A stretch of DNA of 64,000 nucleotides from positions 16,167,028 to 16,231,027 of the forward strand of contig CM082576.2 in assembly GCA_040954595.2 (NCBI GenBank), written 5' to 3'. The stretch's first letter is position 1. Every line of letters starts with the position of its first letter. Below are positions 552 to 58,232 of this stretch, piece after piece. The notes under the pieces were generated by a model that was given only the letters and a program-made list of their open reading frames with translations, was not told the origin of the DNA and ran no database searches. Position numbers and translations under genes: made by a program. Source of the DNA: Balanoglossus misakiensis (taxonomy: Eukaryota > Animalia > Hemichordata).

Positions 552-19762
<19,211 letters not shown>

Positions 19763-27799: not shown

Positions 27800-27945
27800 T
27801 TGGTGGCGTCAGCATGCAAGACGCGGACGCGCGCGTCAAGGCGCCGTGGAGGGCGCGCGCGCGTCGGCGCTGGTATTACCCACAAGTCACTTCGATGGAA
27901 CACTTCCGGGGTATTTCCAAGACGGCCCTGGGACTTCCCCATATT
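27800..27945. promoter_or_regulatory. CpG-rich, probably bidirectional promoter between TEX55-like and Rel genes, with kB and Ets sites
   Basis: Local GC/CpG-rich patch (gcgcgcgc runs). CACTTCCGG (Ets/GABP) at 27901-27909, GGGGTATTTCC at 27908-27918, and GGGACTTCCC (fits GGGRNWYYCC) at 27930-27939. Confidence 0.55.
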
Positions 27946-29635
27946 CTATTTTTAGACATAACAAGAATGGGGTTTATAGCCGCATTTAAAAGTATACCTA
28001 GGTTATACTTCCAGTTGCTTATTTAAATCAATTTGAAACTAAAACAACACATGTGAACAAGCAAGTAAGCACTCAGCGTGCGTGTTGCAAATCTGACTGA
28101 AGATTCCGGACTCTGGACAGGGCCAAAAATAGAGGAGTGCAGTGTACATCGCGAAGTTTCATCAACGACACGCCGACTGACACATGTAGTTGTGGGTTGA
28201 GAATGGCAAGGAATGATATTTTAGAAACAGGTTTAATGCCATATAACGACATCGATCAAAGCAGCTTGACAGGTTGGTACTGATAAAACCGATAAGGTGA
28301 CTGTGTATCGTGTGTGGGGTGTGGGGTGTTGGGGGATGGGCAACTTGATGAATGAGAGAATGTTTGGTGTACAACTATCTCCTCTGCTACTAGTACTACT
28401 CCAGTACTCATGCTACTTTAGAAACTCAAGACATATAGCACGTGGTAAACTGAATCTGTCGGTCGGGGACGTCATCATGATCGTCTCCGTCTGATAAACA
28501 AAATATATTTTACCCTACATACGGACCGGTCGAGCCTATAAACCCGAAAACAAAATTGCGGTTCTTGAAATTTAAATTTTGTTCTAAATTACAGTGCCAA
28601 ATGTTCATTACAGACGCTCATATGAGTCATGACTTCCATATATGGAATCCAAGGGTGCGTAAGCGTTTACTACGTCCGGAAGTCATGTGAACTGAAAGTC
28701 CAGTTGATGAAATCATGAACGTAAAATTTATATCAATGTATATGGACTATCGATCTTTTCTTCTATTAGTATTATACCATATTTCCTGTTTATAAATGTC
28801 GAGTGCTAATTTTTAATTGGGACAGTTTTAATATCACTTCTTGGTTATTATGCAAATTTATGTCAACAAAATGACTGCTGATGAAAGTGATAAATTGATC
28901 CTAACCCTACCTAGTAATACTTATAGTATTGGGTGATTGAATGTCCGAATGCCAGTAAAGGTGTTATCGTAGTTATTCCAACGAAGTTACATGTACCACA
29001 GAATGAACAAAATGGCACTCTGCATATTTATAGCACATGTCATCAGCCTATGAAGAACACTATTCATCAGATCCCTCTTGTTCTCAGGAATATAAAACTG
29101 TCACTGTGTCATATTACTCCTTTTGACCAACTTTTTGAAGAACTAAATCCGCACCTTGTGAAAGTCGGTCACTGATCCAGTTCACAGACATTTGAATACA
29201 CTGCCAATACCAAGAGGGAATCTTCAAGTTGATTTAACGAGATAATTTTGAAGCCTTGCTGTTTTGAATCTGTGAGTGTTACTCAACAAACTAAACGTTA
29301 AAGCAAATGTCATAAAAATTCAGGAGAAATCCTAATTAGATTATAGAAACTGCAATGCATATACATTCCATTATGGAAGCAGTACTAAGTGTCCCTAATA
29401 TTCAAACTCATTATTTGGACAAATTTTAACAAACTAATACAGCCATGTGTGATATGATTTATAATATTGTTAAACACTATCATCATTACTTGTAATTACT
29501 GCCAGTGCTTCCAAGTTAACTTATGTCTCGTATTAAAAGATCACATTATATCAACTGCAATATATGTGTAAATATAATCATTAATAGATAATCAATCCAT
29601 TTTCAGCATGGTCAGGTAATTTACATCTGCAGCCA

Positions 29636-32600
29636 ATGGATTGCAGTATGATTGATGAAAATGCAACAGGGCTTATCATCATAGAACAACCACATGCAAG
29701 AAAACTGAGATTCCGTTACAAATCGGAAGGAGAGACTGCGGGAAGTATTGTAGGCGAAAATAGCACTGCAGAACGACCAACCTATCCCACTCTCCAGGTG
29801 AGTGATTATACATGTTCGAGTAATACATGTAATGTAACACGTTAGGCTATAATTCTGCTCTCTGGCCATTATTTCAACATTTACACTTCTAGTTTCCAGT
29901 TGCCGTAAGTACAAATGGCAGTTGAAGCTGTTTGTATCCGCTGCACAAGAATTAATAATCCTTTACATGTATGTGTGTAAATAACAGTACATCTATATGT
30001 TTTGATATTTGGTGTGCGAATTTCAATTCATCTTTTTATTCAACTATAAATGTTACTGAAAATGATGAACATGCCATTCACTGATTCAGTGATGATGAGT
30101 TTGTTGAATCTTAAGAGAAGTGTGCCATTTCATCTCAAGCAGTTGTCTGTTAATAGGTCTCTTGTTATTCCCTTTGGATGAAAGCCCAGGGGGCAAATAG
30201 ATTACCCTTTGTCTGTCTGTCATTTAGTCCATCTGTCCATCCACCTAGAGCCATTATTCAGTCAAATGCTTGGACTGATTCAAGGTTGACTGATTCCATT
30301 CAAACTTTGCACATGGGCAAGGCTTGCAAGCTAAAAATAACACATGACCTATACGTGACCTGGGTGTGCATGTGGCTGTGTTCTCTTGACTTGCATATGA
30401 TCACGTTCCTGGCATGTTTGGAGACACAGATGTTAATTAAAATTATCGCAACACAGTTTTATCAGACAGAGTACAGATTTCATTTGTCATCATTTTTGAT
30501 ACCTGTCTAACTGAAACAATGTTATTAAAGGTATACTGTCACCTCCAATTTACATACGCCCATATATGGCTGAAATGGCGTATTTGAGCGTTCTAAAGAA
30601 CATATGGTGGCGCTCTTTTTTTTCGCGTGTGCCACTGAAAATTAGTGATTGGCTAGATCTCAATGTGCCATGGTAACTATAGTATAGCTAATTTTCAATA
30701 GGTGACCATGTACCTTTAACTTTTTGAACCAACGTCATAGTGATGTGTATAATCCGTTCTTTGCATCAGTGTTTTTGGTTCTGTTTGTGACGACACCAAG
30801 CTTTTCTATATGTGAGAGCATATCATCACCTCTGACAAGACAGTGTGTATCAGTCAAAAGTCAGTCAACAAAAAGTTTTGTTAAGTTTGTAAGCATGCTG
30901 GCAAAAACACACATGAAAGGGTGTGCAGTACGCCGAACTATCAACACCACACATTGATTTATTTTATCACATGAGACCGACAACTGAGCAGCATATCAAC
31001 CAACAGTTGGCCCCTACACCTACAGCTATCTGGAAAAGGAGCTATTACTAACAATGATTTGCTTTTTGTGTGAAAGGTAATCAACTGTCAAGGTCCTGCA
31101 GAAATTGTTGTGAGTGCCGTCAGTAAAGATGATCCAGTATGTCCGCATCCATACAGTCTGGTGGGCAAGGATTGCAAAGATGGAGTGTGTATTCTCAAAG
31201 TAGCACCAGGACAAACAATTGTCAGGTAATCCATGTCAAGAATTATTAGACTTGTGAAGAAAACCATTACTGTCTTATAATTATACATTTTCATAAATTT
31301 CAGAAATTACACAGTATTTTCTTCTTTTTCACAAGTACATTAAATAAAAAAAGGCGCACACTCATTCCTGCATATGTGGAAATACACACTATCCCACTTG
31401 CATATGTTTTCTAACCTAAATTCCCAAGCCATTTCATCCACGTGCACATATTGCATAATCTATTACATTTAGGAAGACAGTTTCAAAAGGTTAGTCAGAA
31501 TAGGGTCTAGTGCACATGACTGGTTTTGGTGACAGAAGTGAAATCTTCAAAGCAATATGGTTATGACCTATTGACCTTTTCTGAGGCCAAAGATCGTGCA
31601 AATTGGTTCTAAGTTTAGAAATAATTGTTTAAAAAGAAGTCTGAGAAAGACTGAGCCAATTATCGACATGAATAGGTAAAATTTTAACAATGACCTACAC
31701 TGGAATATACGATTTATAACTTCTTAATGTAAAAGTTAACCTACATTTATGTTATAGGGTTAAAAAAAATTATACATATTTGGGCATTGATAAGTGAAAA
31801 TTATCTTTGATGAACTACATGAAGTTTCAAAGTTTGTTTCCATTAGTTTGTAAGCATCAACCTAAAGTGTTGGCTTTGCATAATCGTTTGTAGGTCAGTA
31901 GCCTTTGGTGTTTATTTTAGATACTTTCAGTTCCCTGTGACTTTATCAAGCAAGGCAAATGGAAATAAAAGGTTCCAATAGTTCACTATAATATTGGCAA
32001 ATGTCTTCTCTATTAAATTGAATCAATGAAAAACAGAAACTAGCAATGGTCTCCAACTATGATTATGAAGTTTTCACAGTTTTACATCTGTATCTTTTGC
32101 ATTGTTTCTTATTTCTAGCACATACCATGTCCACTTAACTTTTTTCTGTTATAGCTTATTCATATTGGTTTGTACATGGTGATATATTGTGTTTTTATTT
32201 TATGCACTCTTGAAATTTGTCATCTTGTGTGGTGATACAGCTAGATGATGGTTACCTCCAATTTACATACGCCCATATATGTCAGAAGTGGCGTATTCGA
32301 GTGTTCTAAAGAACATATTCTGGCGCTCTTTTTTCGCGTGTGCCACCCACTGAAAATCTGTGATTGGCCAGATCTCAATTTGCCATGGTATAAACTGTAG
32401 CTATATTTGCATAGGTGACCGTATACCTTTAATTTCTGTGTGACATGGCCGTATGATCAAAAATAACAGTGCATGATGATATTTGTCCAACAGCTGTTTT
32501 GGTATGGGTGTAAGGTGTGAAAAGAAGAAAGATGTCCCAGAAGCCTTTGGACTGAAGAAGAGAAATCCCAGGCAGGCATTCAGAGGTGAGAGAAATTGAG

Positions 32601-35600
32601 ATTCAACATGAACATTCAATTACTCTAACATTCAATGGCTCTTTGTATTAGGCTATTCCTAGATGACGTTACAATTGCAGAATTTTTTTAACAAACATTG
32701 TGTGCTTTGGAAAATTTAAAAAATGTATGAGTAGAGTACTCTGACATAAAATACACAATGATCAGTTGCCCTGTTTTACTGAAAAAAGTAATATCACATT
32801 GTGTGCACATTGTATGTCATGATGTCCACTGCAGTCCCAAAATAATGGTGAGAATAAAAGGACACACATGCCAGTAACACAATTGTATAATTTTGCACAC
32901 TTACAGTTAATATGAATATTCATTAGTGAACGAAGGGTGTGTTTGGGATTATTTGCATAAAAAGCCTGAGATTTGATTTGATTGATTGGGTGAGTGAGTG
33001 AGTGAGTTGTTGTTGTTCATTTATTCCTCCTCGAAGTATGAGAAGAGTTACATCAACACATTAAATTACAGAGGTACTGAGGGAAAAAAAGTCAAAATAA
33101 TACTAAATTATACAGGAAGGCTTCTGAGTGAGTGAGTGAGTGAGTGAGTAACACTCTGACTGACAGACATGAAATATTCGTAAAGTTCTCCGCTGCTTAG
33201 AATCTGATAATGCCACTTGAGTGCATTTGCAGAATTGACAAGGCTATGATTTATGCTGTGTCATGTTAGATAATAAGCAAATGAGTGTTTTTATCATCAT
33301 GTCTTGGAGCAAGATTTATCACTCAAACAACTGCTTCTACAGTGAAGACTTTGTTCGTAAAGGGACAAAGTCTCTCTCTCGCTGTACTTTTTACATTAAT
33401 TATGAATGATATAAGACACCGTTTAAGTTGATGTACATGTGGATATATAGTGAATCAATGTTCGACCACACACAACTTCCATCCCGTTTGTAGGATATGA
33501 GATTAAAAATCTCGCCCAAGTGTCTACAAGTGGGATTGAAGTTGTGTGAGGTTGAATGTTGATTCACTATATATCCACATGTAGAATAACATAAACATTG
33601 TCTTGTATCAAACATAATTAATGGGAAAAGGGCAGCGAGAGAGAGACTTTGTCCTTTTCCAGCAAAGGACACCTTTCAAGGTATGTTACACTTACAAGAA
33701 ATCTATCAAGTATTGCATGTCAAACTTACTCTTTGTTGTGGATGTGAATTTCAGATGAAATGTCTCGAAGACCAGATGATCTGGACGTCAACTGTTTGCG
33801 GCTCTGTTTCCAACTCTATCAGCCACATCCGGAATTTCCAGATTCCATGTCCCTTGTTTCGCAGCCTGTCTTGTCAAATCCCATCTTTGATAAAAGTAAG
33901 TCATATATGGGGGTCACACACACACACCATTAAGATGGTTCTTAAGCATCTCTGATCAGATATCCCGTCTTTAAAACACGTGTGGACGGTGTATAGTGGT
34001 TCTGAAACGGCTTAGATTTGAGACGGCTTTGCCGGCCAGACCTGACCGGTGTAAGGATTAACACCTCTCTGCAACTCATAGTCTATGGGACCACATACCC
34101 TAGAAAATGGGACCGAGCCTCAGTGCCTATACATAAACTTTGTGTGTGTGTTGACACAACGCGACTCAAAGGATTAATGCTCTGTTTTTACCATAGGCAA
34201 ATAGTGTCTCAAATTTTACCCTGTGTGAACCTGGTATTAACCAGTTGTTTGTAATCTGAGGAAAGTTGCTCGACATGCATAAATTTTAGTATTGACCTAA
34301 AATTAAATAAAAGACGTATTCATGTATTTTGCCCATATATGTAGACCTCGAGGTGAGCTGTGATTATTGGGCAGCAAGTTGGGAGGGGAGAGGGGTGGAC
34401 AAATGAATGGACTAAATTGAAAATACTTTACACTTTATTTGTGGACTACAGAAGCAGCTGGAACCTGTAATTTACAAATTGTCCGAATGGATAAGACAAG
34501 TGGAAAAGTGACTGGTGGCGATGAAATCTACATGTTTGTAGAAAAAGTGAAAAAAGGTGAATAGGCTCTTTAATGTGCAGATTAAGAGTTAATCAAACTG
34601 TTGATTTCATTTGCTTTTTCTAGAGTAAGACAATGATTTTTTTATTGTAAGACAACTATACTTAATTCAAAAGCAGCATGCAACAGTGATAAAGCAACTC
34701 CAAAACATAGTTTAGATGTTCACTGTTCTAGTGAAATGCATGTGTTGGGAAAACTAAAACAGGACATCAGAAAGCTTGGTTGTTCGGACTTTAAGTACCA
34801 GTATCTTTTTTGACGTTTTGGGATGTTACCGCTCCGGTTTGGACGAATCAATCTGTGCATCTAACCAAGCGATGACATTAATTAAATATGCCAAAATACA
34901 AAACGCTAATGTGACCTCAAAACCAAAATTGATACATATTCATGAGTTGCATGGGCCGCGAAGGATTTTGTTTCATGTATGATTCGCATACCTGAAGATT
35001 TCAGAATGGTTTCATTCAAAACTGAGTGTTCTGTGCTACAAAGGCCCGCAGGTGTGCCCCATCTTCAGCAATGTTTCATGAGCTTTATTATTTATACAAT
35101 ATTCTAATCTGGTGTATGTTATTTCTGTGCTAGATGACATTGAAATTCGATTTATTGACGGAAAATGGGAGTCCAAAGCAGAGTTTGGACAAAGTGATGT
35201 TCATAAACAGGTGGGTACCTGAAGATTAATTTTTAACTTGTGGTCGGTCGGTTGTTTCGTGCTGTGTTTATGTTTAAGTTGCAAGCCGTGTATTAGATGA
35301 GCCCACCACAGATGATAGCAGATCTTTGAACTCTCTCCAGCATGAGAATGCATGTCAGTATGTTGTGTATGTTTATACCTCTGGATTGGTCATCATTTCA
35401 GTCGTTCCTCCCATAGGAGATTCTTCAGACTGTCAGTTTTCCAGAAAGTGTTTTTTTAGGTAGAGCTATTAATTTAGATTATGTTTTGTTTCATTTTATG
35501 CTGACTTGTAAAATCAATTTTTCTTCATTGTTGGGCAAAAAGTCCTCTAAGAAGCAACCTGTCTAACTGTTTTTGAATAGTTGTTTTAACATACATCGTA

Positions 35601-38600
35601 CCTAGGAATGTTTAAGCAATAACCCCCGCCGCAGGCGGGTATATGCAAGATTTGGGTACAATTCGAGACATATAGCACGAGCCGTCAGGCGAGTGCTATA
35701 TGGAGCGAATTGTACCCAAATCGAGTGTATACCCGACTGAGGCCGGGGTTATTGCTATTATATGATATCAACAACTGTTTTTGTGGCATATCAGTGTAAT
35801 TTTCTTACCGAAATGGCGTCAGAAAGAGAAATTATGATCGTGAACCAACATGGCGACGATGAATGTAAACACGAGCGGCCGCGATCGAGCATTAAACATG
35901 AAGCAGACGACAAAAAGTGACAAGACGGGCATCGCGCGTGGCAAAGTGACAAATATTTCCACAGAGCAGTTCCAAAATAAAACGTCTGTTAATTCAAATG
36001 TATTTTTGTTTTATTTATTTGGTTTAAACACGCGCGACTGTGGTTTAACCGCACATTTTTGCTGCCGTATGCTAGTTCAGGGGCCCATTTTAGCACTGCC
36101 AGCAGTGCATTATGAGTATTTTAGCATCGCTGGATTGAGCTCTCGTCCAATCAGAATTGCGGACGGTAGCATGATATAATATAATCAAATTTATACAACT
36201 GATGACATTTGCAATATTGTATTTTTGGTAGTTGTCATTTTGGTCGAGAAATCTTCTCAGAAACCTATGTCTGATCATGCCGGTTTATATTTTGTTTGAA
36301 GAGTCAATTTGTATGTGCATTTTTTTTATATTTTTAAGGCTATGCCTAAAATCACAGTTTCTGACAAATCCTTGTTTCTGTTTAATTTCAGTATGCCATT
36401 GTGTTCAAGACACCGGCCTATCAAAAATTAGACATTTCCAATCCAGCAACAGTTCAAATTAAGCTCTACCGACCTTCCAACAGTGAATACAGTGATCCTG
36501 TCAAGTTTATATACAAGCCGGCTATCTCAGGTAATTCTTCAGAGGGATACTTGGTTTTGAAATGTCATATTAAAGGGACAAAGTCCCTCTCGCTGCCCCT
36601 TTTCCATTAATTATGTTTGATACAAGACACCATTTATGTTAATGTACATGTGGATATATAGCGAATCAATGTTCAACCACACACACCTTCCATCAAATAT
36701 ACTTAATGGAAAAAGGACAACGAGAGAAAGACTTTGTCCCTTTAAAAGAAGATGACCCTTTTTTTTTTCTTATCTGTGACCATTGCCATAGATGTAAAAT
36801 GAATTCTCTAGGCAATAAAGTTTCAAGAGTGGATGCCAATTAATGACTTAGAGCAATATAAAAGCTCGTATCTTTTTGTTTTCCCGTTACATGCTGTTAA
36901 AGGTTTTATACTTGGGTACATTTTCAGTAAAAGAAGTTATACTTATAACACCATAAAAGTCAAATGGAAGGCCGGAAGAATGATTGCAAACAAGGTTTTG
37001 AAAGACGTTACCAAGATTTACTGTTGTTCATGCACAAATTACAACCCGAAATCACTGATTTTTAGAAGGTCCTTGAAAATGCATGTCATGTGACCACTTC
37101 ATAAAAGATTATTGTCGTTTGTGGAGTGACTGTGGTACTGTACATGATCAGGTTCCTGCTTTTTCAAAAAAAAAACAATCAAAAAACTTCTGCTAGTTCT
37201 GCGCATATATAGTTTATGAAGACTAATGAATAGACTTGGATTTTGTGCAGTTTATGAAGCAATGACTTTCTTGTGTTCCTTGCTTTGTTCTCTGTTTTTA
37301 GATAGCGAAGAAATCCAAAGAAAAAGGAAGAAGTTTGCAAGCTTTGACAAATTTCTTAAGGGGAACCAGCCATCTCTATTCAGAAGTAAGTATCAAACAA
37401 TTGATCCTAGTGGACATTGGTGGCAGTACAGGAGTGTGGTGGTACCTTCAGCAAAGGGCGAGATTGTAAGACCCTGCTCTGTGAAGTCTTCAGATACTCA
37501 GATACAATTTCATTTATCTCACATGTAATGGCATTGGTGTGGCCATTTATTAATAGTCTGAGCTGCCCTGATCCAGTTTAGATTGTACATTTTGCTGTAA
37601 GTACGCTTGTATATACAAAACAATTCTAAACTCTTAACGAATATGATGAATAACCACGTAAGATGAGGTATTTCAATTTATGTGAATACCTTCCCATTTT
37701 GTATGTGGATATATACCCGGGGAGCTTATGAAATCAGTACACTCACATGTATATCTTTATGTTTTCTCTTCAGAACCACTACCAGAACCAGAACTCCTTC
37801 CCAGACCATCTCATTATGTAAGGGAGAGGTTGCCAATGAAAGCTGAACACTCTGCTGATTCCAGTATGCCTATCCCGTATCAAAGAATGAACCATTGGCA
37901 GAACGTCACGGGTCAACAGCAGCGCTTGCCAGCAATGCCCTCTGGAGGTCAACCACCAAACAGACAAGCGTTGAAGAGGCCACTGGAGAATCACGGCGCT
38001 ACCACAACTCAGACAGCACACATGGTTTCTGGGCAAAGGCAGAGCTTTAAGTTTTGTGCCGGAAGAACCGCTGGTATCCCGGGAGAGTATCAGCAAGTGC
38101 CTGCAATGCCACCAGCACTGACAAAGCCACCGGACGAATTCCCGATTCGCAGCGTTCTCGATTTCGCCGAGACGCATTCGGTGCCGGTGATCGGACGGGC
38201 CATGAGCGAAATGCTGGAACGGCGGACGCCTTCGCCTCACGGTTCGCAGAGGGAACAAGGCACGAGGGACGTCAGACTGGAGAGAAAGACGCCCCTTCCA
38301 CACGGCTCACCACGGCCGGCATTCGAAGCCAATCCGTCTTCACCCAGTCATGGCGGCAGCTACAGTCAACAGTCGCCAACCATCGAACCCAGCGCCACCG
38401 AGGACAAGTTCTTCGATCAGATGCTGACCAGTCTGTCGCAGACTCCACAATCATCCCTGGAAGGACTCACACTGGAATCGGTCGATGAATTCTTCGCAGC
38501 CAGCGAGCTCCAGACGAACAACTCGTCCACTCCAAAACAAAACGTCCGTGTCAACCCAGCCCGTAAAGATTTGCAATTTCTACACAGTGATGTTGTGTGT

Positions 38601-41600
38601 GATGGCAGTCCTCTGACTGAACTGGTGGATCCACCATTCACACATGTGGTGAAGACAGACACGGCTTTTCAACTGAACACCGCTGCAGACTTGCTGGACA
38701 CAGGTTCCCTCGACGCACCCAGAATGCACGGCACAGTAGATCAAACGGTGCCCATCAACGATGGCGACATGATCAATCACGTAGGTACAAATGCATTCCA
38801 AGACGAGCAGGTGGTTCCCGTCGCTGGACTCTACCCTACGGTGTCCTCTGTGATCGACCACAACGGCGGAAAGCTAGAAATGTCCGACCTTGGTGTTTCT
38901 TTGGTGGTGCCAGCCAACGCCCTTGCCCCTGGAAGAACAGAGCGCATATCGCTCAGTATCAGCTGGCATAAACCTGACAAACCTGCCTTAGGAGACGGTG
39001 AAGCTTGGATCAGTCCAGTTGTTTGTTGTGAACCCACAGGAATACGGTTCGACACACCAGTTGCTTTGTCTTTCGAGCATTGTCTCAATTTCAAAGACAA
39101 ACATCGAGGGAGGATCAACCTGCAGTGTAGTAATACTGAGTTGGGTAAGTCTTCTTAGTGTATACCATATTAATATATGCATACTTTTATGTGATTATCA
39201 AAGATTTCTTCCCATAAAGTAAAGAAATACATGTAATGTTGAAATGAAATAGGTCAAATAAAATGGATCGTGAAAATGGAGCTGTAGAATAGGAAACAAA
39301 GTATTATTTGTAGGGTAAGTAAGTGGTGTCATTAATAAAAATTTGTTGGGGAAATCTACACTGAACATGATTTTTTCATGCCATGAAGTTGGCAGATGTT
39401 TTCTTGTACATAATGTATGTACATGATGGATGGATGTACCGGTAGTGTGGGGAATCACCATCCAGCAAAATGCTCTAATTTCTACATTTAATAATGTCAT
39501 TAAATTTTACATTTCACGTTGGTTATTTAGTTATTTTTCTTTCATGAATTTGTAAAAAGAAAAAAATAACATTGTTAGAGAGATACAGAAACGTACAGAT
39601 GCTGTTTACAGACATCTATATGTACTGGGCACAGTCAAGTTGGCGTACTTTGGCTATGTGATCGTCTTCATGATATGAAAGCTTTCAGATTGCCGTCAAA
39701 TTCAACAAAAATGGGGAATTTTATTTGTTAAATTCTCATGGTTCTGTATTTTACGTATCACATACAGGAGCTCAAAATAGATGGATGAAGAAATCCATTG
39801 AGGACACAGACGAATGCACATGTCTCGTCACTGAGAATAGATGTGTTGTCATCACGGATCATTTCACAAAGTACGGTTTGAGCGCCGATATGACGGAGGA
39901 AATGTCCAAACGGATCAAAGTTGCAGTCTTCACAGCGCCGATCGAACATCCCCATTCTGATGTCATCCTCAGGGTGTACGCTATTGATAACACAAAAGTG
40001 GCCTATCAGGTGTGTACAAAGATCATGTCTTGCGTATCACGTGTAATATGGATTGTAGTTCACTCATCATTAAGCTTGTGATTTGTGAATAAATAGAACT
40101 AAAATCTCAGCAGAAAAAAAAACATCTCCCTGAAAGAATTCCCTTCAAATCTATATTCTGCATTAAATTTCCAGAAACTCCAACTTTGCGCTTTTTTCTT
40201 CATGTTTTTGTTTTGGGTATAAACCACGTTTTTTGGTTCTACTCTGTACTATATAAACATGAATAATTTCTCAGTATTGGGTTTTTCAACACAGGCCTTT
40301 TGTACATGTAGTAAATAGCATTGTTATTGTTAAAAATTGAATTAAAGTCCGGACTTGAATTCATTTGTCAACAATAACAATGGCTAGAACTCATATACAG
40401 GCTTTGTTGAGAAACAAAAAACTGAATATTTCATAAATCTAACCAGAGTAGATACATGTACTTGGGAGAAAAATACTGGAAAAATAGCCAAAAGTTGAAG
40501 TTCCTTAGAGTCTATCATTGACCATGTGACAGACATTTGCCATGACTGGATCTGACGAATGAAATGATGATTTTCTTGTCCAGGAAATGATAACTGAAGA
40601 GGAACACATGAAAGGGTCACTGGCTGAGGCTACAAAGTATTATCATTTTTTCGACAACCAAACAGACCTGGATGTTATGTTGGAATCTCTTGATGATGGC
40701 TGGCAGTTGGTCAAATGTCAAACGTGCATTGTAAGTACTGTTTTATAATTGCATTGGTCTTACCAGAAAGTTTGACGGAAAAAAAATATGTCAGGTTTTT
40801 GAGATTTCATCCAGCAGAGTTCAGAGCTTGTTTACAACCAAGTCACAAAATTAATTGGAGTTAACTTTTTCTTGACTATCTGGCAGTGAGATGATTGTTG
40901 TGTTCTACAATCTTATCAATCTCTTGCTATTAATACACCCATTGCAAATACTATAGCTTTTAATAACATCTTCCATCACAGGGATAAAATGAGTCAACAA
41001 ACAAGGTGATTGTCACAATGAAACCTTAATAACTATACCAAAAGCAATGGCATTCATTTTCGCGACCATTTGTGGAGTGACCGCGAACAGAAGAAGCACC
41101 AAGTTGAAGAATGGTGATCAAAAAGCTGTGTCACCCTGTAAAATTGGTCTTGCAGTTTTCATCTTTTCTGGTGTATTTACAGTCATTTAGTCTACAGTTT
41201 GTGTACCTACAATGTACCCGGTACAGACATCACAAGTAGCCATAGCAACTGTGGATGTTGCTTGATTAATAGTCACTGAAATGTACTGTGTGTGTTTTTA
41301 TTATAGGCCTTACCTAGAAAAGACATTCTGGAAGGTTTGAAGACAAGCTGTACGTTCCGATTCTCTAACCGCGGAAAATGTTTGCAATTTGGATCCAACG
41401 TCCAAGTGCACCAGAAAAGCAATACCAATAGCCCCATACTCTTTACCATCAGTAAGAGTATAAAGGTATGTTATATTATCACTTAAATTTCAATTTACTT
41501 TATAGTGTTTGTTTTATGAACATACATGTAGCCTCTTTTTTTGAATCAATTGTTTTCTTCATCCACTAGCAGCTGTATGTCCACTATCTGCAACTTTCAG

Positions 41601-42878
41601 CTTTATTTTTTTTAATTCTGTGAATTAACCTTGGTTTCTTGATCTAAAGTGTTAGGCTTCCAAATATAGGCCATGTGTGCACACTCGACATTGTTTTTGT
41701 TTGCAAAATATTTTCAAGTCCAGACTTGAATGCATTTGTAAACAATAACAATGGTCTCTCCAAATACTGTACTGAACTGTACTGTCTGTCTGTCTCTCTG
41801 TCTGTCTGTCCGTCCGTCTGTCTGTCTCTCTGTCTGTCCGTCTGTCTATGTGATGTGTCTGTTTAAAGTGTGCATGTTCATAGGCAGTACTTTATTCAAT
41901 TCATTTGTTTTAAACTTTTATGCGCATTTGCTCATTTTGCTAAGGTTTATTTACTACATCTGACCTGCATTTATTTATTTCCTAACTTTTTAGCAACCGG
42001 AGCAGTTGCCAGTAGTACCCGTTGGAGCAAGTATGATGTATCGTGAATCATCCACTTTAGTGCATCAGCCCTACCCTGTTACTGATGCAGCTGTACAACA
42101 GTCATCATATGCTCCAGTGACACCCCAACTGAGACCTGTCAGAAGACCCGTGCTTGCACTGCCAACAAATGAAGCTTCATTCTCCTCCGATTCTGGCATG
42201 GAGTCGTCGCTGGCAAGTCTGTCTTTCTCCCCGGATGATTTAAAGAATGTCATCCCGTTCGATGTCAAACAAAAGCTGAGCTTGCTGTTAGACCCGATAC
42301 GCGACCCCACTGGAAATGATTGGCGCATGTTGGCGTCGAAGATGGGGCTCAGCGCGCTCATCCCGAACCTGTCAATGCAGCGGAGCGCAACACGGTCACT
42401 GCTACTGCACTGGGAAACAAACCACGATCCCAGTGAAAATCTGCACGAGCTTATAGGGATGGTTGAAGGTATAGGCAGACCGGACGCGGCAAGGATCCTT
42501 AAGGAGTACGATCAGCTACAGCAAAGACAAAGAAACACTAGCAGTCAGAGTTTACCCGCCCTTGTAGCTCCCGACTCTGTAGATGGTGAGTGTGTTCTGA
42601 CAGCGAACAGTTCTGCTCCCGATTTGCTTAATGTCAAAGCTTGTAATCTGACCACACCGGACATTCACCAACTCTCCTCTGATGTCAATCGAAATCCTGC
42701 TGCTAATGTGACTGAAATGACCGGAACAGTTCAACATACACACGAGCAATTCCCAGAATCCGGGGATCTGCTTCAGGCTTTGAATGAGAGGTGTAACCGC
42801 ATCCAAAATTCGCAAATGACAGACCATCGAATTCTGGCCCAAAGATCAGGGTCTGATGAAACTAATGAAAATTTCTAG
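29636..42878 (+). CDS. Rel/NF-kB family transcription factor fused to ZU5-UPA-Death domains (~1250 aa)
   Basis: 13 phase-compatible GT-AG exons: 29636-29797, 31077-31225, 32494-32585, 33755-33895, 34452-34556, 35134-35210, 36392-36530, 37302-37385, 37774-39144, 39768-40009, 40584-40730, 41307-41465, 41994-42878. Total 3753 nt = 1250 aa + stop. RHD motifs: EQPHARKLRFRYKSEGETAGSI, PHPYSLVGKDCKDGVC, LRLCFQ, VLSNPIFDK. IPT motifs: GGDEIYMFVEKVKKDDIEIRF, DVHKQYAIVFKTP. NLS RKRKK, followed by ZU5, UPA and a death domain. The exact start is uncertain because the frame is open back to the acceptor at 29607. Confidence 0.9.
30529..30715. mobile_element. MITE family D
   Basis: TTAA|AGGTATACTGTCACCT...AGGTGACCATGTACCT|TTAA. 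Confidence 0.72.
32251..32428. mobile_element. MITE family D, left end eroded
   Basis: Same body as 30529-30715, ending AGGTGACCGTATACCT|TTAA. Confidence 0.68.
33361..33655. mobile_element. MITE family A
   Basis: AGGGACAAAGTCTCTC...GAGACTTTGTCCTT in Rel intron 3. Confidence 0.75.
35615..36180. mobile_element. Unclassified element beginning with a ~145-bp hairpin
   Basis: AGCAATAACCCC...GGTACAATTCG...TATAGCAC[GAGCCGTCAGGCGA]GTGCTATA...CGAATTGTACC...GGGGTTATTGCT, then a CpG-rich body. The right boundary is approximate. Confidence 0.5.
36574..36741. mobile_element. MITE family A, internally deleted
   Basis: TTAA|AGGGACAAAGTC...GACTTTGTCCCT|TTAA. Confidence 0.75.
38841..41465 (+). other. ZU5 and UPA domains (UNC5/ankyrin/PIDD type) of the Rel gene
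   Basis: ZU5: VIDHNGGKLEMSDLGVSLVVPANAL...ISPVVCCEPTGIRFDTPVALSFEHC...W...VVITDHFTKYGL. UPA: KRIKVAVF...ILRVYAIDNTKVAYQEMITEEEHMKGSLAEA...DLDVML...GWQL...SCTFRF...VQVHQ. Confidence 0.87.
42246..42509 (+). other. Death domain (UNC5/p105-like) of the Rel gene
   Basis: IPFDVKQKLSLLLDPIRDPTGNDWRMLASKMGL...SATRSLLLHWE...LHELIGMVEGIGRPDAARIL. Confidence 0.9.
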
Positions 42879-53710: not shown

Positions 53711-54570
53711 CTATTGTGAAAGGTTTGAATCGGACGCGATAGACTCAACGCACTCGGTGTCAGGAATTGCAAGGCCCCATTTGCCCTCGCTATCCAGAAC
53801 ATGGAGAGCCCTGGATTTCTTACCAATTCCGAAGATGAGACCGTTTTTCTGAATGGCAATGTCCCTGACGCCGAGTCCTTCGGTCTTGAAAGTGGCCCAA
53901 GTGCCGCCCAGACCGTCGCGGACCTTCAGAAGACCTTCCTTGGTGACACCGAAGATTCTTCCGTCGGGGTGGACATCTACGGCCACCACTCCCTTGCTGC
54001 GACGAACGTCGGTCCAAGCGCTGCCCGGAGTCGTTCGGGGGTCCGGACGCGTCACCAGCAGCCCTTCCGTGGACACTCCCAGCAAGGTGCCGTCCGACAT
54101 GACGGTGACATCTTTGACGCAGCAGCTGTCGGGAAGCGGCCCCACCCAGTCGCCAACGTGCGGTGATTCTTTCCTGTAAACCTGATGGTCGTCTTTGACC
54201 CCCAGCAAAGAGTGGTCGTGCAAGATGCCAATACTCTCGACGCAGCAACTGCCTCCCACCTTTTCCCATTTACCAAGCATTGATGCGCGCTGAACCAATT
54301 TCTTGGTGCATTCTACACCGATCATAGGTGCTGTGGAAAAAAAACACAAACAAAAACAAATGAGCACGTGTATATATCGGGCATGTTTTTTTTCTGTCTT
54401 CAATCTCCAAACCTCACCACAAACACACATTTTGCCGACTGGAGAAATTCATTGAGCCAATAAGAAGAATAGTATGGACTATTGAAATACATGTACACGT
54501 ACTTACCAATACCATATGCTGTGTGAATTATCAGCTGAAGCAACAGCGTCGATACTAATACTCGCCACAC
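53711..54570 (-). CDS. Tectonin/tachylectin-like beta-propeller repeat protein, paralog B (~227 aa; GTG in place of start ATG)
   Basis: Signal exon 54570-54507 ([V]WRVLVSTLLLQLIIHTAYGI, donor gtaagt) joins exon 54330-53711, which has about five ~38-aa repeats (W-x4-6-S-CC-V-x2-V-x4-DG-x-LLGV-x4-L-x2-R). AATAAA at 53395-53390. A probable non-coding exon has its donor at 54951-54946. Confidence 0.75.
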
Positions 54571-57349: not shown

Positions 57350-58232
57350 CTATACGTACATATTGTCTAATGATGCAATAGATTCGACGCAACCGGAATC
57401 AGGGATCAACTCCCAAGTACCATCTTTGAGGACGTAGAGGGAGTCCAATTTCTTCCCAATTCCATATATGTCACTGTTTGGCTGTATGGCAATATCCTTG
57501 ACATTTACACCGGATGACTTATACAGACTCCAGGTTGAGGATAAACCATCGCGAACCTTCAGTGACCCTTTTGGAGTGACGCCGAGTATTCGACCATCTG
57601 GGAAGACATCTGCAGCAACCACTCCGAGGCTGTGGGGGACGTCGACCCAATCGCTGTTCAAGTCTGCACGATGCACCAGCTTCTCGTCCTTGTGAACGCC
57701 CAGGATGGAACCGTCTGCCATGAAGGCGACATCTTTAATGCAGCAACTGTTCTCAACGGGCCCTTGCCATTCACCGACATTTGGCGCCACTTTGTAGTAC
57801 AACTCTCGGTCTTTCACACCCAGTACAAACTCGTCATCACGTATCGCCACGTCATCCACGCAGCAGGTACCTTCAGCCAAATGCCAATTGCCGTCATGGT
57901 GACTACGTGTAACCAGGTTGCCATCACAGTCAGCCCCGAGCATTCTAGTTGCTGAAAGACAAAACAGCGTGGTGAACATCCGATATAACTCGCCAACCTA
58001 AAAAAAATATTGATTTAGAGGGAGCAAATGGAATGGATGGCCCCCACCCTACTTCCCGCCCTCCCTCGTTCCCTCCCTCCCTCCATCTAAACCATCACAA
58101 GGCCCACCCCGTGACACACATGCTGGCATTCCCTCAGTCACAGCGTAATATCAGAGTTTAATACCTACATCCACAATCTCCAAGACAAATCCACAGTTGG
58201 ATTATCAGTAGAGAGGCACAAATTCGCCACAT
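57350..58232 (-). CDS. Secreted tectonin/tachylectin-like beta-propeller repeat protein, paralog A (221 aa)
   Basis: Signal exon 58232-58169 (MWRICASLLIIQLWICLGDCG, donor gtaggt) joins exon 57951-57350. It aligns end to end with the 53711 gene (GVVAADVFPDGRILGVT vs GVVAVDVHPDGRIFGVT; IPDSGCVESIAS vs IPDTECVESIAS). AATAAA at ~57220-57240. Confidence 0.82.

Follow-up and report, generated by a model that had tools for sequence, protein, structure and literature searches.

Can a Rel-type transcription factor be built in one chain with a death-fold signalling module and, if so, what would such a protein do? The question is raised by a gene on the forward strand of a 64,000-nucleotide (nt) stretch of the acorn worm Balanoglossus misakiensis (contig CM082576.2, positions 16,167,028 to 16,231,027; here called the window, in whose numbering all coordinates are given). 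NF-kB proteins are taught as two layouts, in which a Rel homology domain (RHD) is followed either by an activation tail or by ankyrin repeats. The gene at 28203-42878 encodes an RHD, an IPT domain, a basic stretch resembling a nuclear localization signal (NLS) and a long linker, followed by ZU5, UPA and Death domains; the RHD carries Rel-class motifs, ZU5 carries an HFT motif, and the arrangement is conserved in two acorn-worm families.

Structure and conservation of the fused gene

The first-pass annotation of this locus had described 13 exons reading as one in-phase open reading frame of 1250 amino acids (aa). In the window DNA these exons join to 3753 nt, that is, 1250 aa and a stop, with zero internal stops, and all 12 introns are GT-AG and 388 to 1279 bases long. 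The description holds except at its beginning, where the first coding exon had been missed: the ATG at 29636 is internal and not the start, and an acceptor at 29606/29607 joins in phase to an upstream coding exon at 28203-28272. The revised model has 14 exons and 1283 aa, and residue numbers (for example, aa 838-840) follow it. Pfam was run on separate exon frames, 11 of which were scanned. The coding features are as follows.

28203-28272 (+), exon 1: start codon, 23 codons and one base; tblastn with the N terminus of the Ptychodera flava protein gives 52% over 25 aa (E 0.003); splices in frame to exon 2
29607-29797 (+), exon 2: start of the RHD, holding the DNA-recognition loop RFRYKSEG (aa 58, nt 29708)
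31077-31225 (+), exon 3: RHD DNA-binding domain (Pfam RHD_DNA_bind, 2.1e-12)
32494-32585 (+), exon 4: RHD DNA-binding domain; GT-AG, in phase and alignable to P. flava XP_070578737.1
33755-33895 (+), exon 5: last part of the RHD DNA-binding domain (Pfam, 4e-6)
34452-34556 (+), exon 6: IPT or dimerization domain (Pfam RHD_dimer, 8.3e-6)
35134-35210 (+), exon 7: IPT or dimerization domain, from splicing and the P. flava alignment
36392-36530 (+), exon 8: end of the IPT domain (Pfam RHD_dimer, 7.2e-13)
37302-37385 (+), exon 9: basic NLS-like QRKRKK at 37316-37333; a basic stretch is also found in the P. flava and Glandiceps talaboti proteins
37774-39144 (+), exon 10 (1371 nt): linker and, from ~38835 in the same frame, the beginning of ZU5 (Pfam ZU5, 3.5e-20)
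39768-40009 (+), exon 11: last part of ZU5, first part of UPA
39860-39868 (+): HFT motif, aa 838-840, predicted self-cleavage site between F839 and T840
40584-40730 (+), exon 12: UPA
41307-41465 (+), exon 13: end of UPA; no Pfam match when scanned alone
41994-42878 (+), exon 14: spacer, Death domain (~42273-42509; Pfam Death, 3.1e-13), tail and stop

Across the exon frames, Pfam gave RHD_DNA_bind at 2.3e-15, 2.1e-12 and 4e-6, RHD_dimer at 7.2e-13 and 8.3e-6, ZU5 at 3.5e-20 and Death at 3.1e-13; UPA was weak (0.0065 and 0.0071) and reached 4.3e-11 in a scan of the complete P. flava orthologue. As annotated, the 1371-nt exon carries the linker together with the start of ZU5 in one frame, and no transmembrane (TM) segment is present (the peak 19-residue hydropathy, 1.33, lies within the RHD); the linker ahead of ZU5, which had been put at ~390 aa, measures ~355 aa. 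The protein has none of the signal peptide, Ig and TSP1 domains and TM helix of UNC5 netrin receptors. The first half of the linker is basic and the second half acidic (net charge -16, -18 and -25), with an aromatic block common to the window and P. flava proteins, and this acidic half is a possible activation region. A single-sequence fold of the exon-10 frame had a pLDDT of 34, too low for use. In the tail past the Death domain (42600-42878), the blocks PDL-L, L-x-x-LN-x-x-C and RS-x-SDE-x-N are shared by the three acorn-worm proteins and faintly recognizable in a sea star protein described below. The sequence DSGMES at aa 1055 was rejected as a degron; it is missing from the P. flava protein.

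The fusion is known here from genomic sequence and predicted gene models. When long proteins were searched with the ZU5 part, one of 146 candidates matched, P. flava XP_070578737.1, which has the same five Pfam domains and aligns end to end with the window protein (714 of 1316 columns identical, 54%), including the NLS-linker junction at 37385/37774. Among the best 120 of 167 matches to the P. flava RHD, two have ZU5, namely the P. flava protein itself and G. talaboti XP_077998854.1, a colinear orthologue with the same five domains; Pfam scores for RHD and IPT on the orthologues were 7.9e-51 and 4.4e-34. P. flava belongs to Ptychoderidae and G. talaboti to Spengelidae, two families of Enteropneusta, and the window protein is nearer to that of P. 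flava. Its identity to the P. flava protein is 79% in the N-terminal part of the RHD, 82% in IPT, 42% in the linker (25% to Glandiceps), 69% in ZU5, 67% in UPA and 60% in the Death domain; among the three acorn-worm proteins conservation peaks in IPT, where 71% of positions are identical in all three. Variants and depth were taken from DNA runs X1-X3, which are one sample and possibly the source sample of the assembly. Among the variants listed, 19 of 24 exonic changes are synonymous (16 of 20 in exon 10), and among the read contigs listed none had 31 bases on both sides of the 37774 acceptor.

Outside acorn worms, the architecture recurs in a sea star, a relative that the first-pass annotation had lacked. 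Among the best 150 of 317 matches to exon 10 in a search of representatives, 2 of the 148 other than the two acorn-worm proteins have an RHD. One is Patiria miniata XP_038072325.1 (P0126), a protein of 1645 aa reading RHD-IPT-kinase-like-ZU5-UPA-Death; the other, P0136, reads RHD-IPT-ZU5 in one frame of a 4026-base record that we infer to be a transcript. A further protein, P0134, has a kinase and ZU5 part of the same kind as the Patiria fused protein. The DNA-reading loop is absent from the RHDs of P0126 and P0136, and neither HRD nor DFG is present in the kinase-like domain of Patiria. In the databases the fused models of P. flava, G. talaboti and P. miniata are named either 'uncharacterized' or 'Netrin receptor UNC5'. 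A search for short relatives gave 182 matches, and among the best 120 there was neither a ZU5 protein nor one named as coming from a hemichordate or echinoderm; in the ESM Atlas RHD and ZU5 occurred together in no cluster among those listed, with whole-protein matches under 0.9. Patiria also has a paralogue with ZU5-UPA-Death alone (P0128, XP_038073248.1), whose module is 59% identical to that of the fused protein and has HFC at the cleavage position.

It is very probable that the locus encodes one real protein joining the RHD to ZU5-UPA-Death. A merger of two adjacent genes (Rel and UNC5C-like) by gene prediction, or an assembly chimera, is an extremely unlikely source of the model, although stand-alone ZU5-UPA-Death genes are common in these animals and in Patiria one such gene seemingly shares a contig with the fused gene. 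Against a merger, which the first-pass annotation had already thought improbable, domain order and phase are alike in three acorn-worm genomes and a sea star; sequence conservation continues across the RHD-linker junction; the 388-base intron offers little space for a gene end and a promoter; no stop codon ends the RHD exons; P0136 holds RHD-IPT-ZU5 in one unbroken frame of its 4026-base record; and depth in run X1, which may be the source sample, is even and single-copy over 36808 to 40100. It is also highly unlikely that the main product is a short isoform with the RHD alone or the RHD and linker, the full fusion being a minor splice form. Read-through of intron 9 would give an open stretch of 74 aa and then a stop, intron 10 holds three poly(A)-like hexamers, and P0136 ends just past the equivalent of the intron 10 donor; however, intron 10 is 31.5% GC, at which such hexamers arise by chance, no poly(A) hexamer occurs in intron 9 or exon 10, and the UPA and Death domains that a short isoform would omit are 60-67% conserved to P. 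flava.

Class of the RHD and origin of the fusion

The RHD and IPT domains, the recognition loop and the basic NLS after IPT place the protein among NF-kB/Rel proteins. The RxRYxxEG loop is intact in all three acorn-worm proteins, that of the window included. Arg, Arg, Tyr and Glu of this loop make base contacts in solved Rel structures, and all four are kept; Ser replaces Cys, and Glu replaces a further Arg that is usual there. A lamprey p65-like protein (P0339) has a parallel change, with Ser for Cys (RYPSEG) and Thr for Arg. We consider it likely that the acorn-worm protein is a DNA-binding factor.

Several lines of evidence bear on the class of the RHD. Its best match among solved structures was c-Rel (263.7 bits), followed by p65 (241-242), RelB (232-235), p52 (up to 219) and p50 (up to 213). 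The acorn-worm RHD has the motifs AGS-I, C-x-KK, D-KK-A (DKKA) and RPS, as in Rel and Dorsal; where all 7 ankyrin-class rows in an alignment of 43 have GPSHGGL, the acorn-worm proteins have GETAGSI. The p50-type insert is absent from the acorn-worm RHD (LCFQ), no ankyrin family matched the P. flava or G. talaboti proteins or the window exons scanned, and the linker after the NLS, at 5.9% Gly, is not a glycine-rich region. In trees, the fused acorn-worm RHDs are separated from the ankyrin class (100/99) and form a long branch outside the sampled vertebrate and protostome Rel group (85/82). The set comprised neither an NFAT root nor ordinary echinoderm or hemichordate Rel, and 18 of 52 rows were dropped from the first tree and 27 of 52 from the later tree and the approximately unbiased (AU) tests. 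These tests rejected nesting with vertebrate p105/p100 (p-AU 2.8e-5) and did not reject grouping with vertebrate Rel (p-AU 0.176).

The RHD is thus best read as Rel/Dorsal-like, belonging to a Rel-type factor that gained a tail. A p105 with its ankyrins swapped out is unsupported, given the Rel/Dorsal motifs, the c-Rel best match and the rejected p105/p100 nesting, and the earlier wording of a module standing 'instead of ankyrin repeats' was misleading. The proposal of a third NF-kB class survives as an architecture, found in independent models from two other acorn worms and a sea star; it may or may not be a separate lineage, as the AU test allows a grouping with vertebrate Rel. The fused RHDs, which fall outside vertebrate and protostome Rel, may have a deeper origin.

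Acorn-worm and sea-star-type proteins group together weakly in both halves of the molecule: in the RHD tree at 87/77, on a very long branch, and in the ZU5-UPA-Death tree at 77/80, from which 8 of 43 rows were dropped in one version and 22 of 43 in the other. The break in P0136 and P0134 coincides with the exon-10 donor of the window gene, and a few unfused ZU5 proteins break nearby as well. A single ambulacrarian origin of the fusion is plausible from these data. Two independent fusions of RHD and ZU5 may instead have occurred, since the ZU5 module has also been fused to SH2, CARD, TIR-leucine-rich repeat (LRR) and Ig domains in other invertebrates. A Pfam scan of 53 of the 150 listed exon-10 matches gave these partners as LRR-TIR-ZU5 in Branchiostoma floridae (P0196), CARD-ZU5 in Lingula (P0144), SH2-ZU5-UPA-Death in Glandiceps (P0139) and Ig-ZU5-Death in Dendronephthya (P0240).

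Predicted self-cleavage and function

Modelling of the P. flava ZU5-UPA-Death part from a 48-row alignment gave a pLDDT of 84.9 and a pTM of 0.78, with ZU5, UPA and Death in order and in the UNC5B fold. Its best structural match was UNC5B (3g5b; Z 37.4, root-mean-square deviation (rmsd) 2.5 A over 371 residues, the Death domain among them) in the closed pose, so that the Death domain is predicted to pack on ZU5 as in UNC5B. Against the FIIND of CARD8 and NLRP1 the model scored Z 16.1 (rmsd 3.7 and 4.1 A over 250 and 247 residues). A complex prediction for the P. flava RHD with its ZU5-UPA-Death part, made without alignments, gave no usable answer (score 0.00 against a mark of 0.34). Pfam FIIND and CARD had no match on the P. 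flava or G. talaboti proteins.

The HFT motif, which the first-pass annotation had not recorded, aligns by profile with QLG of UNC5B. UNC5B Leu677 is equivalent to Phe296 of CARD8, where cleavage occurs, PIDD is cut at HF/S, the nucleophile can be Ser, Thr or Cys, and the cleaved fragments often remain associated (PMC3210808). The NLRP1 FIIND chain 7crv_B, which would be the cleaved C-terminal chain, aligns to the model starting exactly at the Thr of HFT. All four full-length fused proteins have HFT, as against none of four aligned UNC5 receptors with a netrin-receptor ectodomain, and the UNC5 rows form their own group in the ZU5-UPA-Death tree (100/98). The motif signals cleavage competence and is not proof of it; by analogy with PIDD1, UNC5CL, CARD8 and NLRP1, self-cleavage between F839 and T840 is likely.

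We propose, as the best explanation and at a rough probability of 0.55, that the protein is a self-processed Rel factor tethered to a UPA-Death adaptor and opened by a signal. A single chain would be made, fold and cut itself between F839 and T840 inside ZU5. The resulting 839-aa chain, with RHD, IPT, NLS, acidic linker and most of ZU5, would be a Rel-like transcription factor, and the 444-aa chain, with the last ZU5 strand, UPA, Death and the tail, an adaptor. The two chains would remain bound, with the Death domain masked on ZU5, until a signal opened the module; the Death domain may then dock on a MyD88/IRAK- or RIP-type death-fold receptor complex, and opening would free or activate the Rel chain to bind kB DNA as a dimer. 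This last part, the Death-gated release of the Rel chain, is more tentative, and we place it somewhat below even odds. If it is right, a receptor complex would be wired directly to a transcription factor.

A number of observations weigh against this proposal. HF[S/T] is standard among members of this ZU5 family, with 34 of 48 rows showing it, and in ZO-1 an HF occurs with no nucleophile after it; therefore, the motif shows neither cleavage nor selection for cleavage. The closed pose may mirror the UNC5B structure known to the predictor, and Ser for Cys with Glu for Arg in the recognition loop may alter DNA affinity. The sea-star relatives have lost the recognition loop, so the fusion can persist without DNA reading. 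The three orthologues, from P. flava, G. talaboti and P. miniata, are automatic gene models.

Two other functions have to be set beside a self-processed Rel factor. The protein could be a decoy or guard like NLRP1 and CARD8, in which the RHD is bait: factors that destroy NF-kB would send the N-terminal chain to the proteasome and free UPA-Death, which would polymerize and cause cell death or inflammation. The ZU5-UPA-death-fold layout and the cleavage position are as in FIIND, destruction of the N-terminal chain frees the UPA part in NLRP1 (PMC7483925), and the ZU5 module is joined to CARD, TIR-LRR, SH2 and Ig domains in other invertebrates. A sea-star RHD without the DNA-reading loop and a kinase-like domain without HRD and DFG are also what would be expected of baits. 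In the acorn worms, by contrast, the RHD is the best-conserved part (79-82%), its loop and NLS are intact and variation is mostly synonymous, whereas faster change is expected of a pure decoy; moreover, Pfam FIIND misses the two other acorn-worm proteins and the closed model holds Death on ZU5 as in UNC5B. The sea-star form thus fits a decoy and the well-kept acorn-worm RHD fits a Rel factor, and for the acorn-worm protein we regard the decoy, the chief competing reading, as unlikely.

Still less likely is an uncut cytoplasmic scaffold or inhibitor, in which IPT would pair with ordinary Rel/NF-kB proteins and the tail would anchor them in the cytoplasm or at receptors. The high conservation of IPT is as this would predict, partners probably exist, at 4 to 7 RHD domains per hemichordate proteome (PMC8662601, supplementary table 2), and UNC5 receptors use a closed module without cleavage (PMC10084454). 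Yet HFT is found in all four full-length fused proteins, and the NLS, the recognition loop and the acidic hydrophobic block of the linker are kept. The hemichordate count of 4 to 7 includes NFAT. A broader history, which we put on the unlikely side, would combine two of these functions: the architecture would date back to the ancestor shared by echinoderms and hemichordates, and a Rel factor with a self-cleaving FIIND-like switch would have been both a death-domain-gated factor and a tripwire for NF-kB destruction. Acorn worms would have kept both roles, and sea stars would have turned the protein into a pure multi-bait decoy with a decayed RHD and a kinase-like domain.

Related systems, literature and surroundings of the gene

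Class II Rel proteins (c-Rel, RelA/p65, RelB and Dorsal) share with the window protein the order RHD-IPT-NLS, a low-complexity linker and the class II motifs; unlike them, it carries ZU5-UPA-Death behind the linker and has the two substitutions in the loop. With the class I proteins p105, p100 and Relish it shares the N-terminal RHD, a Death domain near the C terminus (p105 and p100) and probable processing to a shorter factor, and its NLS reads similarly to that of p105, whereas it lacks ankyrin repeats, the glycine-rich region, the PSHGG motif and the p50-type insert. Class I precursors are processed by proteasome or caspase trimming; processing of the window protein would be self-cleavage. 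UNC5CL and PIDD1, which act upstream of NF-kB (PMC3210808, PMC7883297), have ZU5-UPA-Death with the HF[S/T] self-cleavage motif, but the window protein has no TM helix, no LRR and a single ZU5, with the transcription factor itself as its N-terminal portion. NLRP1 and CARD8, in which FIIND (ZU5-UPA) is followed by CARD, resemble it in fold, in cleavage position and in an N-terminal chain bound to a UPA-death-fold chain, and differ in having CARD where it has Death, SFS where it has HFT, and NACHT or LRR, which it lacks. The cytoplasmic domain of UNC5B (3g5b) matches the whole module in its closed form; UNC5 receptors, however, have no such cleavage motif, and they contain Ig, TSP1 and TM segments. 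The sea-star protein XP_038072325.1 has the same domain order as those of acorn worms, plus the kinase-like domain and minus the DNA-reading loop.

In keeping with the first-pass annotation, which knew of no characterized protein of this kind, a literature search gave no paper joining Rel homology, ZU5, death domain and NF-kappaB, and none joining ZU5 with NF-kappaB or the Rel homology domain in hemichordates or echinoderms; subscription journals and most supplements lay outside the search, and a genome paper may mention the fusion in passing. Among the papers listed in broader searches, none combined ZU5 with RHD terms. The accessible part of PMC11432056 does not mention ZU5, that of PMC8662601 states a lack of architecture diversity for NF-kB and IRF proteins, and sea cucumbers are described as having a Rel and a p105 (PMC13673367). 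We conclude that the fusion is real, conserved and, as far as the searches reach, undescribed, a new architecture of known parts; its interest is lowered by those known parts, by the frequent shuffling of the ZU5 module in marine invertebrates and by the presence of the architecture in database models. If the proposed reading is true, NF-kB could in this conserved third layout be activated by a different route that needs no ankyrin inhibitor, and two arms of innate immunity, Rel transcription and death-fold signalling of the PIDD/NLRP1 type, would meet in a single protein chain in the chordates' sister group. The acorn worm, with its intact RHD, and the sea star, with its decayed RHD and kinase-like domain, would form a natural experiment in the passage from signalling domain to decoy.

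Upstream of the gene lies a match to the kB consensus.

27930-27939 (+): kB-consensus 10-mer in sequence rich in GC and CpG, ~270 bases before the start codon

This is one of three matches outside a tandem repeat in the 64 kb, where 2.79 are expected by chance, and it weakly suggests possible self-regulation. A near-consensus kB site lies ~20 bases further upstream, ahead of exon 1 (27907-27939). The other 17 of the 20 matches in the window fall in a tandem array at 16395-17223, whose 46-base unit holds a kB-consensus 10-mer per copy; lying inside a repeat, they were not counted and are probably a chance property of it. The upstream neighbour is an EML-type beta-propeller exon at 18082-18483 (+; Pfam Beta-prop_EML_2, 1.6e-14), which can serve as a synteny marker. 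Downstream, long frames on the opposite strand at 53714-54448 (-) and 57353-57997 (-) match Tectonin beta-propellers (2.3e-6 and 5.9e-6) and are candidate lectin-like immune genes. Within the introns, high-copy interspersed repeats, some with inverted arms and with depth up to 10^5-10^6, occupy ~30520-30720, 32250-32430, 33360-33680, 35610-36190 and 36570-36750 and are likely to be small non-autonomous DNA transposons.

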